A DNA stretch of 64,000 nucleotides, taken from contig CAZXQA010000001.1 in assembly GCA_964642835.1 (NCBI GenBank), forward strand, positions 132,314 to 196,313. Direction: 5' to 3'. Below are positions 34,824-42,351 of this stretch, piece by piece. The DNA is from an uncultured Candidatus Saccharibacteria bacterium (GTDB lineage: Bacteria > Patescibacteriota > Minisyncoccia > Phycocordibacterales > Zambryskibacteraceae). Each line of letters starts with the position of its first letter. The first letter of the stretch is position 1. The notes under the pieces were generated by a model. That model was not told where the DNA came from and ran no database searches. It was given only the letters and a program-made list of their open reading frames with translations. A program made the position numbers and the translations under genes.

Positions 34824-36500
34824 ATGTCAATAAAGATTGTCCACGAAGAAATAAAACGTTTCTTGGAAAATGACGAACCAGAGGTTCTTTGTCTTAAGGG
34901 AAAGTGGGGCGTAGGTAAGACATATGCTTGGAATTACTTTCTTAAGGAAGCTGCAAGGAAAAAAGGTTTGGGTATGAATAAGTACGCGTATGTTTCTCTT
35001 TTTGGGCTTAAAAGTTTAGAAGAAGTTAAGTATGCATTATTTGAATCAACCGTTGCTGATGAGGCAATAGTAGATGGGCCAAGTGCAACAACCTTAGATA
35101 AGGGATTCACTTGGGTGAAAAAGAACTTGAGAAAGGGAGCTGGCTTGGTTAGTCAGAATCCTCTGGTTAAATCTTATATAGGGGAAACAGAGAAAAGCCT
35201 TTTCTTTCTAGTTAGAAATCAAGTTATTTGTATTGATGACTTAGAGCGAGCTAGTGAAGGTCTCGATATTAAAGATGTGTTTGGCCTAATTTCTTATTTA
35301 AAAGAGCAAAGGAGATGTAAGGTTGCCTTGCTTCTTAATGAAGAGAAGATTGCAGATAAAAGTGTTTATGATGAATTACTAGAAAAAGTGGTAGACACCA
35401 AGCTTGATTTCAGCCCAACTCCCTCAGAAGCATCTGATATTGTATTTCCATCACCTTCGGACAATCAAAAGTTGATACATGATAACTGCGTTAAATTAGG
35501 TATTACGAATATCAGAATCATCAAAAAGATTGAAAGGATTATTAAAAGATTTGAGGAAATTTTTGGAAAGAGTAGTTTACTAATGCCCCAAGTCGTTCGT
35601 TCAGGAACATTATTTGCATGGTCTATATATCAACCAAAAGAAGCTCCTCCTTTAGAATTTCTTGGTGATTTTGGGAGATTGAACAATTTGGGTCTGGAAA
35701 CAGACAAAGTTCCTGAATCTGAAAAGGAATGGCAACAGCTAATGAGAGAATATGGCCACTTTCAAATTGATGATTTTGACAAACAGATACTAGAAACCAT
35801 TAAAAGTGGGTACTTTAACAAAGATGTCTTACTGATTGCCGGGAAAAAACAGCTTGATGAATTCGATGAGGCGCAGGTAAAAAATGAATTTAGCCAAGCT
35901 TGGGACTTGTATCACAATTCTTTCGATCGCAACGAAAAAGAGGTGCTGGATGCAATTTATTCTTCTGCTAAGAAAGCTGCAAAGTTTATTGAGCCGTCAA
36001 ATATGGATGCAACAGTCGTATTTCTTAGAGAATTCGATAGAAAAGAGGAAGCTGAAGATTTGATTAAAACCTTCATCGAAGCTAGAGGAACTGACAAGGA
36101 AGTGGTTGATTTTGAAAACTCTTTCTTTTCAAGAGAGCTGAAAGATCAAAACTTCGCCACAGCATTAAAAAATAATGCAGAATCATTTAAGGATTCTCGT
36201 AGTCCTGCTCAGGTTCTAGAAGATGTGTATTTAAAAAGAGGTTGGAATCCAGAAGATGTACATCTTATTAACACTTTAACGAGTGCTGATTTCTATAACC
36301 TTTTTAAAAAAGCTAAAGGCATTGAAATGCATAGAATGGTGAAGATGGCTTTGGATTTTGGGAAATATACTGATGCCTCTGTAGAAATGAAAAGCATTGC
36401 CGAAAAAGCAATGCAGGCTTTGGAGAAAATTGGAAAAGAGACTCGGCTTAATGCCAAACGAGTGTCGCTTCGTGGAATTAAGGTTACCCCTGAAAAATGA
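34824..36500 (+). CDS. KAP-family P-loop NTPase
   Basis: 558 aa. LKGKWGVGKTYAWNYF Walker A and VICIDDLERA Walker B with KAP-type spacing, long helical C-terminal region. Confidence 0.7.
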   Translation: MSIKIVHEEIKRFLENDEPEVLCLKGKWGVGKTYAWNYFLKEAARKKGLGMNKYAYVSLFGLKSLEEVKYALFESTVADEAIVDGPSATTLDKGFTWVKKNLRKGAGLVSQNPLVKSYIGETEKSLFFLVRNQVICIDDLERASEGLDIKDVFGLISYLKEQRRCKVALLLNEEKIADKSVYDELLEKVVDTKLDFSPTPSEASDIVFPSPSDNQKLIHDNCVKLGITNIRIIKKIERIIKRFEEIFGKSSLLMPQVVRSGTLFAWSIYQPKEAPPLEFLGDFGRLNNLGLETDKVPESEKEWQQLMREYGHFQIDDFDKQILETIKSGYFNKDVLLIAGKKQLDEFDEAQVKNEFSQAWDLYHNSFDRNEKEVLDAIYSSAKKAAKFIEPSNMDATVVFLREFDRKEEAEDLIKTFIEARGTDKEVVDFENSFFSRELKDQNFATALKNNAESFKDSRSPAQVLEDVYLKRGWNPEDVHLINTLTSADFYNLFKKAKGIEMHRMVKMALDFGKYTDASVEMKSIAEKAMQALEKIGKETRLNAKRVSLRGIKVTPEK

Positions 36501-38877: not shown

Positions 38878-39062
38878 GCGCTCGAGACCCGTCGTTTTAG
38901 ATGCTAAAATTAAGCTAATTCCGTCAAGCGGGGCTTAACCGTTTACGGTTCGAGCTCGAGTCGGCCAGCCAACTCGTGCGATGCTCGAGACGCGTCTGCA
39001 CATCGTTTTCTTAGCTCTGCATAGAGCGCACCCTCTTGGGACTCGAACTTTGGTATACTTTT
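38878..39062 (+). repeat. tRNA-Gln-derived intergenic repeat, copy 5 (GCTCGAGACCCGTCGTTTTAGATGCTAAAATTAAGCTAATTCCGTCAAGC form + promoter module)
   Basis: …CGGTTCGAGCTCGAGTCGGCCAGCCAACTCGTGCGATGCTCGAGACGCGTCTGCACATCGTTTTCTTAGCTCTGCATAGAGCGCACCCTCTTGGGACTCGAACTTTGGTATACT. Confidence 0.7.
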
Positions 39063-39065
39063 GTT

Positions 39066-39986
39066 ATGGAAGCTAAAACTGTCGTCACGAGCTACACAGA
39101 ACCCGATCTAGACGGGTATTCTGGTGCCGTTGCCTATGCCGAATTTTTGAATAAAACAGGCACTCCAGCGATCGTTAGGCTTTTTGGTAAACCTCATATT
39201 GAAGCCACACATTTGGTAGAAAAGTATGGTCTCAAGGTTGAACAAGATGATCAGGCACCTTTAGAGAAAGTTGTATTGGTTGATGCGAGTGAAATAAAGA
39301 ATCTAAATCCACTCATTGATTTTAAAAATGTGGTTGAGGTTATTGATCACCGCAAAATGAATGATGCTCCGATGTTTGTAAACGCAAAGATTCTGATAGA
39401 GTTCGTAGGTGCCGCAGCCACTCTTATTGCCGAGAAATTTCACCAAAGCAATATCGAAATTTCAAAGGCATCAGCTATCTTGCTCTACGGGGCTATTGTC
39501 TCAAATACCCTTAATTTTAAAGCCAAGGTTACTACGGAGCGGGATCAAATCATGGCTAAGTGGCTCAATGAACAGCTCGGGTTTACCAAAGAATTTACTG
39601 ATGATATGTTCCGTGCCAAGTCGGATGTAACAGGAGAAAAGCTTATGGAGCGAATTAATGCAGATTTCGCCATCTTCCCGTTTGAAAAAAAGAAATTAGG
39701 TTTTGGTCAGCTTGAGATCACGGATGTTAAGTCTTTAATAGATACTCGAAAAGATGAGTTATTCTCCATATTAAAAACACTTAAAACAAATGATAGCCTC
39801 GATACAGTTTTCATCTCCTTTATTGATCTCAGTGACGGATTCAATGCCTTTGTTACCGAAGACATCGAATTGCAATCTATTTTGAGCGAAATACTAGATA
39901 TTAAATTTGAAGATGGGGTAGCTTTCAGAGATGGATATATTATGCGTAAAGAATTAGCACCTTTTCTTAAAGAGAAGTTTTCATAA
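39066..39986 (+). CDS. DHH/DHHA2-family phosphoesterase (family-II inorganic pyrophosphatase PpaC-like, divergent active site)
   Basis: Start at MEAKTV (ATG 39066, 7 nt after TGGTATACT). TEPDLDGYSGAVAYAEFLNK resembles PpaC NPDTDTICSAIAYA. DHH motif reads IDHRK. C-terminal DHHA2-like GFGQLEITD. Confidence 0.7.
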   Translation: MEAKTVVTSYTEPDLDGYSGAVAYAEFLNKTGTPAIVRLFGKPHIEATHLVEKYGLKVEQDDQAPLEKVVLVDASEIKNLNPLIDFKNVVEVIDHRKMNDAPMFVNAKILIEFVGAAATLIAEKFHQSNIEISKASAILLYGAIVSNTLNFKAKVTTERDQIMAKWLNEQLGFTKEFTDDMFRAKSDVTGEKLMERINADFAIFPFEKKKLGFGQLEITDVKSLIDTRKDELFSILKTLKTNDSLDTVFISFIDLSDGFNAFVTEDIELQSILSEILDIKFEDGVAFRDGYIMRKELAPFLKEKFS

Positions 39987-39992
39987 ATATCC

Positions 39993-40508
39993 ATGCTACT
40001 TCTTAACCAAGAAAAGTATCTAGAAACAGTTCCTGAAGACAAGATTGCTAAAGTGGTTCCCTTTGATCCTGCAACTCAAACAACTGCCCAGGAAATTATC
40101 TCTGAAATCCGAGAAGTTCTTCCAGGAGCAGAAGTTTTCTATATAGGCTCTTCAGCTTTAGGGATAGCAGGAGAAAACGATATAGATATGACAGTTATGG
40201 CCTATGATCGCTTTGATGAATACATGCAAGTTATGGGAAAAATGTATGGTGAGCCAGTTCATTCAAACCCAAGTGATGGATACATAAAATGGGAACTAGA
40301 GAGGAACGGTTTTCCAGTGGAACTTCATTTGAATGATGTAATTTCCCCCAACTTCCAAGAACAACTTGATACTCAAAAGATACTTGAAGGAAGTGAAAGT
40401 TTAAGGCAAGAATATGAACGAATAAAGTTTGAGGCCAATGGTTTGTCTTGGAAGGAATATTTGAGAAGAAAATATGAGTTTTGGAATAGAATTTTAGGAA
40501 TAAATTAA
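39993..40508 (+). CDS. GrpB/UPF0157-family nucleotidyltransferase-fold protein
   Basis: 171 aa. VFYIGSSALGIAGENDIDMTV matches the GrpB core (…HIGSTSVPGL.AKP.IDI…). Confidence 0.7.
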   Translation: MLLLNQEKYLETVPEDKIAKVVPFDPATQTTAQEIISEIREVLPGAEVFYIGSSALGIAGENDIDMTVMAYDRFDEYMQVMGKMYGEPVHSNPSDGYIKWELERNGFPVELHLNDVISPNFQEQLDTQKILEGSESLRQEYERIKFEANGLSWKEYLRRKYEFWNRILGIN

Positions 40509-40512
40509 ATTC

Positions 40513-41073
40513 ATGCTAATTGAGTCACAGGATACCATTGAGGCTTTTAATAAAGGAAAGGAATTTCTTCTTACTCTCCCTGGTTCTCTTGACCCAGAGA
40601 TATTAAAAGAAAGTCCCATAATTTTTGTTTTCAGTGATTTATCTGGGGATTCATCAATCCCATATTTTGATGGTAGTAAACTCTCGGCTAATTTCGATTA
40701 TCCAGAAAGTATTCAAAATCAGTCAGTGATTGAAGAATTTAGGCACTACGAAAAGTTATTAGTTCCTAAGATTCAAGAGATAGTCGGATATTTAAAAGAA
40801 AACCCTTTCTCTAAAAGAGCAATAATCAATATCTGGGACGATGCTCAAAGAGCTTTAAATAATAAAGCCGAATGTTTAGTCTATTTAAATTTTAGAAAAT
40901 CAAACAACGGTCTTGACATGAATGTACACATGAGGGCCAACGACGCGGAAAATAAGATATTGTTGAATTTTCATATATTTGCGGCAGTACACAGATTTGT
41001 ATCAAGGGAACTGGGAGAAAGGGTGGGAGTGTATACTCACTTTGTTGATTCCTATCATATTTATAGAGGATGA
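40513..41073 (+). CDS. truncated thymidylate-synthase-superfamily protein (TS/dNMP-hydroxymethylase-like catalytic core, 186 aa)
   Basis: KRAIINIW…AECLVYLNF…LDMNVHMRANDA…NFHIFAAV…HFVDSYHIY aligns block-for-block with E. coli ThyA RRIIVSAWNP…PCHAFFQFYV…LSCQLYQRSCDV…NIASYALL…GDTHLYSNH (catalytic Cys, Arg and Asp retained). The protein ends about 55 residues before a normal TS C-terminus. Confidence 0.55.
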   Translation: MLIESQDTIEAFNKGKEFLLTLPGSLDPEILKESPIIFVFSDLSGDSSIPYFDGSKLSANFDYPESIQNQSVIEEFRHYEKLLVPKIQEIVGYLKENPFSKRAIINIWDDAQRALNNKAECLVYLNFRKSNNGLDMNVHMRANDAENKILLNFHIFAAVHRFVSRELGERVGVYTHFVDSYHIYRG

Positions 41074-41795
41074 ACCATTCAAAAGAGTATTTTTCCATAC
41101 AGTTAGAATTTGCTAAAAAAGTTTCTGAATTAGCAGGAATAAGTCTAAGTGATGCTATCTTAAATTACACTACCTGTTATAAGAAATTTGAAATCGAAGG
41201 ATGGGATTTTAACCCAAATCATCCAGTCTGGTCTGACTTCTCTAAACAGCTAGAAAGCTCTAGTGATCCTTTGTCTACCGTATACGACTTCTATCTAGAA
41301 AGGCAGAAAACTCAAACTAAGGACGCGCCATCTCCTTTTGGCTGTTTTTCCTACGAATATGATAGCGAAGAGAAACATATTCAAATTCACTTTAAACAGA
41401 AAGATAAATCTGGGATTAGTCCATTAAGTTCAGAAAGAATTGAAGTACGCAAAGATGAGTTAAGGAGAATGTTTTCTGAAATTAGGACTAAATACCCAGA
41501 AGCTAAAACGGTAGGAGGATTTTCTTGGCTCTACAACATTGGGGCATATAGAAGGCTTTTCCCGTCCTTATATACCGAAAGTGCTAAAGTCAATCAAACA
41601 TGGTTTAAGTCGTATGCCCTATGGGGTCAGTTCGTAAACTCTAAGAAAGAATTGAAGCAAGACATGTCCCGCTCTTTTCTATCCTGCGTAGAAAGTAAAA
41701 ATACCGTTGAAGAACTAAGAAAATGTTTCCCATATTTAGTTTTAGAACCTGAGGTGAATATCGACGCTTTTTATAATTTTTACAATATAAAATAA
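41070..41795 (+). CDS. hypothetical protein (4-nt ATGA overlap with upstream gene)
   Basis: 241 aa, no recognisable motifs. Translationally coupled inside the 39066-42351 operon. Confidence 0.45.
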   Translation: MNHSKEYFSIQLEFAKKVSELAGISLSDAILNYTTCYKKFEIEGWDFNPNHPVWSDFSKQLESSSDPLSTVYDFYLERQKTQTKDAPSPFGCFSYEYDSEEKHIQIHFKQKDKSGISPLSSERIEVRKDELRRMFSEIRTKYPEAKTVGGFSWLYNIGAYRRLFPSLYTESAKVNQTWFKSYALWGQFVNSKKELKQDMSRSFLSCVESKNTVEELRKCFPYLVLEPEVNIDAFYNFYNIK

Positions 41796-41799
41796 TAAT

Positions 41800-42351
41800 A
41801 TGAACGAACGAGGCGTACTGAATCTGATAAGGAATGATAAATGGATGATGAATGTCTTGGAGACTGCTGAGAAACTTCGACTGCCTCAATGGGTTATTGG
41901 GGCGGGGTTCGTGCGTAATAAAGTCTGGAACCATCTAAGTGGAAAAAATGATGCACAACACTCAACCGACATAGATCTCGTTTACTTTGACCCTATTGAT
42001 ATTGAAGAATCTACCGAAAAAGCGTTAGAGAAAAAGTTGAAAGAGGTGTTGAAGCTAGATTGGTCTGTTAAAAATCAGGCTAGGATGCACCTAGTAAATG
42101 GAGATAGTCCTTATCTTTCTACAGAAGACGCATTGGCACATTGGCCTGAAACAGCTACGGCGATCGGAGTAAATAAGGAGGGAGAAAACCTTCGTCTCGT
42201 TAAACCGTATGGCATCGAAGATTTAGTAAATATGATTGTCAGATCATCTTTAAAATTCAAAGGAGGCCTAGAAGGAGTTAAAATTCGAGCAGCAAAGAAG
42301 AGATGGTTAGAGATGTGGCCAGAGTTAGTAATTCAAAATGAAGATAATTAA
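41800..42351 (+). CDS. nucleotidyltransferase family protein (NTP_transf_6/DUF925-like)
   Basis: 183 aa. WVIGAGFVRNKVWN…STDIDLVYFD matches the DUF925 nucleotidyltransferase signature. Confidence 0.6.
   Translation: MNERGVLNLIRNDKWMMNVLETAEKLRLPQWVIGAGFVRNKVWNHLSGKNDAQHSTDIDLVYFDPIDIEESTEKALEKKLKEVLKLDWSVKNQARMHLVNGDSPYLSTEDALAHWPETATAIGVNKEGENLRLVKPYGIEDLVNMIVRSSLKFKGGLEGVKIRAAKKRWLEMWPELVIQNEDN

Follow-up and report, generated by a model that had tools for sequence, protein, structure and literature searches.

Gene architecture and homology

The question raised by this locus was whether a 186-amino-acid (aa) open reading frame (ORF), described in an earlier note as a truncated protein of the thymidylate synthase (TS) fold, is a damaged gene, one part of a split gene, or an intact gene for a minimal enzyme, and which reaction such an enzyme may catalyze. 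The ORF lies within the window (the whole stretch of DNA analyzed, 64 kb of a 487-kb contig), and the features referred to below are as follows.

40513 to 41073, + strand: complete gene for a 186-aa minimal TS-fold protein (ATG-to-TGA ORF; stop codon TGA at 41071 to 41073)
40513 to 40764, + strand: N-terminal half, aa 1 to 84 (DSSP of the structure model, structural alignment to AfhB, profile matches to relatives)
40813 to 40818, + strand: K101-R102, equivalent to ThyA R126-R127 (hhalign offset of +25; 11 of 11 clade members)
40873 to 40875, + strand: C121 codon TGT, equivalent to the ThyA nucleophile C146 (sequence, hhalign)
40933 to 40944, + strand: R141-A142-N143-D144 (RANDA motif), equivalent to ThyA R166-S167-C168-D169 (sequence, hhalign)
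40966 to 40968, + strand: N152, equivalent to ThyA N177, the uracil-versus-cytosine selector (hhalign; role per PMC13326640)
41056 to 41064, + strand: H182-I183-Y184, equivalent to ThyA H207-L208-Y209 (sequence, hhalign)
41070 to 41073, + strand: ATGA overlap between the stop codon of the TS-like gene and the start codon of the next gene, a translational-coupling-type junction (sequence)
41070 to 41795, + strand: downstream 241-aa gene (ORF241), separate from the TS-like gene and belonging to its own family of about 240 aa

The 186-aa protein belongs to the TS/dCMP hydroxymethylase superfamily. Pfam PF00303 (Thymidylat_synt) was matched at 41.6 bits, above the gathering score of 24.3 (E = 1.1e-10), with residues 75 to 185 placed on profile positions 100 to 212 of 266. 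The best phmmer match in the PDB was MilA (E = 5e-9), with ThyA matched at 1.5e-8, and PHROG families of TS were matched with E values of up to 1.5e-17. Comparison of the family profile with Escherichia coli ThyA by hhalign (probability, 97.2%; E = 4e-11) aligned residues 84 to 186 with ThyA residues 107 to 213 without gaps, giving the residue equivalences listed above; ThyA W133 is also kept. The earlier assignment to the TS superfamily with a catalytic Cys/Arg/Asp and the colinearity of the C-terminal part with the ThyA core were thereby borne out, and the alignment was strengthened rather than lost when profile methods were applied. The pairing of HFVDSYHIY with GDTHLYSNH proposed at that stage was right in its His/Tyr equivalence but 3 residues out of register, the right partner being WTGGDTHLY.

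Several ThyA positions differ in the hhalign alignment: the folate-contact motif G173-x-P-F176 is replaced by K-I-L-L, H147 by Leu, and S167 by Ala, and the L143 position is occupied by K118. The chain stops two residues after the HIY motif, at the position matching ThyA N211, leaving ThyA residues 212 to 264, which form helix K, two beta-strands, and the folate lid at the C terminus, without a counterpart; the loss of this segment had been recognized earlier, at an estimated length of roughly 55 residues rather than the 53 found here. In mutagenesis of the Lactobacillus casei and E. coli enzymes, the ThyA C terminus is important for closure of the active site over folate and for dTMP formation. 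Among NCBIfam models, the best match was TIGR03283 (46.7 bits; cut-off, 174.55; positions 89 to 194), and TIGR03284 (28.6 against 108.35) and NF002495 (44.5 against 327) were likewise matched below their equivalog thresholds. Y184 falls on position 194 of the 201 positions of TIGR03283; because this curated model stops 7 positions after the HxY tyrosine, the short C terminus is compatible with the family that it describes.

Conservation of length and active-site residues

The protein is complete and minimal, and its occurrence is confined to one small patescibacterial (CPR) clade. All 11 close homologs have the same length and end 1 to 2 residues past the HxY motif, and an independent 186-aa lineage (P0022, 41% identity) stops at the same point. 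Every close homolog shares this end point, and gene damage, as one meaning of "truncated," was not confirmed. Ends within 2 residues of the HxY tyrosine were found in 13 of the 251 TS-fold proteins examined (median, 35 residues), placing the protein at the extreme short end, as had been claimed; its shortness is nevertheless less anomalous than claimed, because short TS-fold enzymes are already established (TIGR03283, 201 positions; AfhB, 217 to 238 residues).

Equivalents of ThyA C146, R166, D169, N177, H207, Y209, and R127 are kept in 10 or 11 of the 11 clade members. The exceptions include P0002 (Ile at R166), P0007 (Leu at Y209), and P0010, the only member with Asn in place of Asp at D144. 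K101 and R102 are invariant in the clade. In classical ThyA, R126-R127 bind phosphate and are donated across the dimer, and H207 and Y209 contact the deoxyribose 3'-OH. C121 forms the sole invariant column of a 59-sequence family alignment (A2), and Cys occupies this position in 85 of 91 short representatives. N152 is Asn throughout the clade (11 of 11) and Asp in 49 of the 91 wider short relatives, and the L143 equivalent is variable (Lys in six clade members, Asn in two, and Pro, Ser, and Arg in one each). Further clade-specific conserved residues are E29, E33, S34, Y63, E75, H78, Y79, Y124, R128, and H139; the first seven of these, with K32, make up the conserved set of the N-terminal half.

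Three of these positions are informative about chemistry in characterized enzymes. Asn at N177 selects uracil and Asp selects cytosine, and D169 binds the pterin; D169N is diagnostic of all tested 5hodCMP synthases; and hydroxymethylases carry Asp or Glu at L143, letting water reach the exocyclic methylene intermediate (PMC13326640). The signature of the 186-aa clade is D169 with N177 (DN), which is shared by 96 of the 97 short archaeal proteins that carry a thymidylate synthase annotation. Sister short proteins include the cytosine-type signature DD (27 of 91) and the flavin-hydroxylase-type signature ND (22 of 91), neither of which occurs in the 186-aa clade.

Predicted fold of the N-terminal half

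Sequence alignment to ThyA fails before residue 84, that is, over the N-terminal ~80 residues. The structure model of the protein is a confident one, with 174 of the 186 residues in the TS fold. DSSP assigned to it a strand, helix A (residues 8 to 20), a second strand (30 to 40), a loop or hairpin (41 to 68), and a long helix (69 to 96). No helix is present at residues 41 to 68, the region in which ThyA helix B carries E58 and which also matches the region following helix B with ThyA W80 and W83. When the clade is aligned with archaeal TS, F76 falls in the Y94 column, where 9 of the 11 members have Phe; the conserved residues E75, H78, and Y79 lie nearby, and position 65 is mostly acidic across the clade. 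Profiles of the 186-aa family matched relatives of 195 to 230 aa over the full length, and three relatives in turn aligned to the full length of TIGR03283 (P0117, 154 bits; P0060, 83 bits; P0127, 71 bits; all below the cut-off). The model and these matches indicate that the N-terminal region, which the earlier note had regarded as unrelated, is a compacted TS N-terminal half homologous to that of the archaeal-type short TS proteins. The best structural neighbor of the model was AfhB, a flavin-dependent hydroxylase (174 of 186 residues aligned, 20% identity).

Comparison with characterized TS-fold proteins

The protein resembles the short archaeal-type TS proteins (TIGR03283; "ThyA" of Thermoprotei and methanogens, about 200 to 250 aa) while being shorter still. 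Both have a similar C-terminal boundary, lack the C-terminal strands of classical ThyA, and share an R-[AS]-N-D-A motif (RANDA here, R-S-N-D-A in the archaeal proteins). They differ in that the protein is bacterial (Patescibacteria), is about 22 to 30% identical to the archaeal proteins, and falls outside the TIGR03283 equivalog. In the archaeal proteins, helix G is also separated from the Y94-region helix by ~20 more residues, the L143 position is His in 80 of 97, and ~30 to 40 residues follow HxY as a tail (consensus ExDWKW...); none of these features is found in the 186-aa clade. The cofactor and biochemistry of archaeal short ThyA are themselves poorly known (PMC9931769, PMC9012536).

AfhB of phage HY126 (PDB 9iqc and 9iqu; 217 to 238 aa), whose relatives include RB69 gp48 and DLP3 gp80, likewise has a short TS fold without the ThyA C-terminal segment and retains the catalytic Cys. 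AfhB-type enzymes combine D169N with N177D, act on dCMP, and use flavin and O2 (PMC13326640), whereas the 186-aa protein has Asp and Asn at these positions and RANDA where AfhB has R-S-Q-N. No phage context and no arabinosylation genes were seen around the gene. MilA, a CMP 5-hydroxymethylase (PDB 5b6d and 5jnh), has an identical RANDA motif; unlike the 186-aa protein, it is 325 aa long with a long C-terminal region, and both MilA and T4 dCMP hydroxymethylase have Asp at N177 and Asp or Glu at L143 (PMC13326640), in contrast to the Asn and the variable Lys found here. Classical ThyA proteins (E. coli, L. casei, and human TS) are 264 to 316 aa in length. Literature searches returned no biochemistry of the 186-aa clade and nothing on MJ0757 or on PDB identifiers 9iqc and 9iqu.

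Genomic context

The window copy lies in a low-GC, mobile-element-rich, island-like segment that also encodes a recombinase, a DNA methylase, and a defense candidate, and it has therefore probably been acquired horizontally from another CPR lineage. Genes in the run from 39036 to 42351 are spaced 4 to 6 nt apart from their neighbors, and the operon partners in the window are nucleotide-handling proteins (DHH, GrpB, and NTP_transf_6) rather than housekeeping genes. In other genomes, clade homologs have housekeeping neighbors (EF-P/RecA/SSB/S6/S18, DnaX, and Obg), and more distant Patescibacteria relatives adjoin a guanylate-kinase-like NMP kinase; SurE/Ssp-like and HD-domain genes also occur beside more distant relatives. 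When all five neighboring window genes were compared by tblastn with 29 related loci, no conserved partner or operon was found, and contexts differed from genome to genome; clade members have no conserved neighbor from a modification pathway, be it a glycosyltransferase, a dNMP kinase, or another gene.

Neither the TS-like protein nor its operon partners were matched by PADLOC; the one match, to the candidate PDC-S49, was the gene at 34824 to 36500, which encodes 558 aa. Scans of viral contigs yielded only distant relatives (19 to 31% identity), which does not support a phage origin.

Searches of the 64-kb window for a second ThyA or ThyX (tblastn with E. coli ThyA and a regular expression for the ThyX motif) gave chance matches only, which offers weak support for a TS role because the contig extends over 487 kb. 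The thyA gene is counted in the minimal gene repertoire of Patescibacteria (PMC12455944), and a CPR folA has been shown to be functional (PMC11974145).

The downstream gene and a possible split gene

The overlap with ORF241 raised the possibility that the gene is split or frameshifted, in which case either ORF241 would supply the C-terminal TS segment that is missing or a full-length TS would have been cut by a sequencing error. The start of ORF241 (M-N-H...IQLEF, with FEIEGWD at residues 40 to 46) does resemble the ThyA stretch S-N-H...LQLSRE with FEIEGYD at colinear spacing; this stretch gave a tblastn E value of 3.6 over the whole window, and HMMER alignments of an artificial TS-ORF241 fusion reached ThyA residue ~257 with a gain of about 4 bits. 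Against this, the N terminus of ORF241 alone matched no TS in the PDB at E ≤ 10 and has no TS domain by Pfam, and the fusion, at 427 aa, would be far longer than any ThyA. ORF241 is instead a full-length member of an independent family of 173-plus members of about 240 aa in unrelated phyla (173 homologs with 99 to 100% coverage; no Pfam domain), whose consensus (xYxK...RFGL-GRDFDP) does not retain the ThyA-like residues. Family members elsewhere do not adjoin TS genes, ORF241 and the TS-like gene share an operon in the source genome only, and no ORF241 was found near TS-like genes at other loci. The end point common to all 11 close homologs and P0022 also argues against a split gene, and downstream of the five homologs inspected in all frames lies either intergenic DNA with stop codons in every frame or unrelated genes. 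The ORF241 family, its contexts, and the shared end point effectively refute a split gene, to which only a very slight residual probability is assigned, and the suggestion that the downstream ORF might be a detached C-terminal piece is not upheld.

Proposed function and alternatives

The explanation favored here, with about an even chance of being correct, is that the gene encodes a minimal, homodimeric enzyme of the ThyA type, which transfers a one-carbon unit to C5 of dUMP and is probably a thymidylate synthase. The protein would most likely act as a homodimer, with dUMP held by R141, by K101' and R102' of the partner subunit, by H182 and Y184 (deoxyribose), and by N152 (uracil). C121 would attack uracil C6, and a one-carbon unit from a methylene-pterin cofactor, presumably of the folate type and positioned by D144, would be passed to C5 to yield dTMP. 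Such an enzyme would dispense with the 53-residue segment that closes the folate site of classical ThyA and would have a compacted N-terminal half. In its favor are the significant TS homology and fold, the conserved nucleotide-site residues and length, the DN signature shared with archaeal short TS, the full-length TIGR03283 matches of the intermediates, the housekeeping neighbors in other genomes, the NMP kinase beside more distant relatives, the names that public pipelines give to homologs, and the published findings on thyA and folA. Points against a TS are the missed equivalog cut-offs, the loss of the C-terminal segment and of the helix-B helix, the changed folate-contact motif, the mostly Phe Y94 column, a hydroxylase as the best structural neighbor, the scant knowledge of archaeal short ThyA, and the island-like operon in the window.

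Modification of dUMP or UMP at C5 without methylation, by a hydroxymethylase (SPO1 type or MilA) or a flavin-dependent C5 hydroxylase (AfhB/RB69 gp48), is considered unlikely. The product would be a modified pyrimidine for DNA or for a small molecule, and the gene in the window would possibly be mobile-element cargo. This is consistent with MilA as the best PDB sequence match with an identical RANDA motif, with a polar and variable residue in place of the water-excluding L143, with the absence of the folate-closing C terminus, and with the ND and DD signatures of sister proteins, which suggest that the wider family explores other chemistries. The low-GC segment with its recombinase, DNA methylase, defense candidate, and DHH/GrpB/NTP_transf_6 operon, and the SurE/Ssp-like and HD-domain neighbors of more distant relatives, point the same way. 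A flavin hydroxylase is nonetheless disfavored by the absence of the diagnostic D169N (Asp in 10 of 11), cytosine as substrate by Asn at N177 in 11 of 11, and a hydroxymethylase, which the earlier note had proposed, by both the uracil-type N177 and an unconserved L143 position (Lys, Asn, Ser, Arg, or Pro rather than Asp or Glu). The mostly housekeeping contexts of the clade, with no conserved modification-pathway neighbor, no close relatives on viral contigs, and no PADLOC match, also argue against it.

Less probable again is a catalytically reduced TS-fold protein that binds dUMP and perhaps carries out only partial reactions (Cys addition or C5-H exchange), with a role in nucleotide binding, sensing, or sequestering rather than synthesis. 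Loss of the whole C-terminal segment and of the ThyA helix-B region, Phe in most members at the Y94 column, the altered folate-contact motif, and the substitutions in P0002 and P0007 would fit such a role, but conservation of the Cys, R127, R166, N177, H207, and clade-specific residues indicates an active site under selection, and similarly reduced archaeal relatives are the sole annotated TS in many archaea. A pseudo-enzyme, the other earlier suggestion, is accordingly disfavored by retention of the nucleophile and nucleotide-binding residues in 10 or 11 of 11 clade members. It is similarly doubtful that the 186-aa clade, with no tail past HxY, is not a folate-dependent TS at all but a minimal TS-fold catalyst with another cofactor or acceptor, for instance one that modifies dUMP or UMP with flavin and O2 or with formaldehyde or an alternative pterin. 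In that case, the short TS-like proteins of bacteria would be a reservoir of cellular (nonphage) pyrimidine C5-modifying enzymes, among them bacterial equivalents of the 5-hydroxy-dCMP synthases lately discovered in phages, and the window protein would act in a joint nucleotide-modification or defense pathway with the DHH phosphoesterase, GrpB, and NTP_transf_6 nucleotidyltransferase-fold proteins of the island and the 241-aa protein.

If the protein is an active TS, it would set the minimum catalytic core for an enzyme that ranks among the best studied in biochemistry. It would show that ThyA can do without its C-terminal "lid," its helix-B region, and two strands of its sheet, and would bear on how folate is held, on TS evolution, and on the archaeal-type enzymes. 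If it is simply a small ThyA, it would be a modest extension of known diversity. The annotation of minimal CPR/Patescibacteria metabolism is also affected, as homologs are already named "thymidylate synthase" by public annotation pipelines without evidence.

Bacterial TS-like proteins of ~200 aa divide into DN, DD, ND, and NN active-site signatures. This division provides a candidate list for new pyrimidine-modifying chemistries outside phages and is useful given the discovery of flavin-dependent TS-fold hydroxylases in 2025 to 2026.

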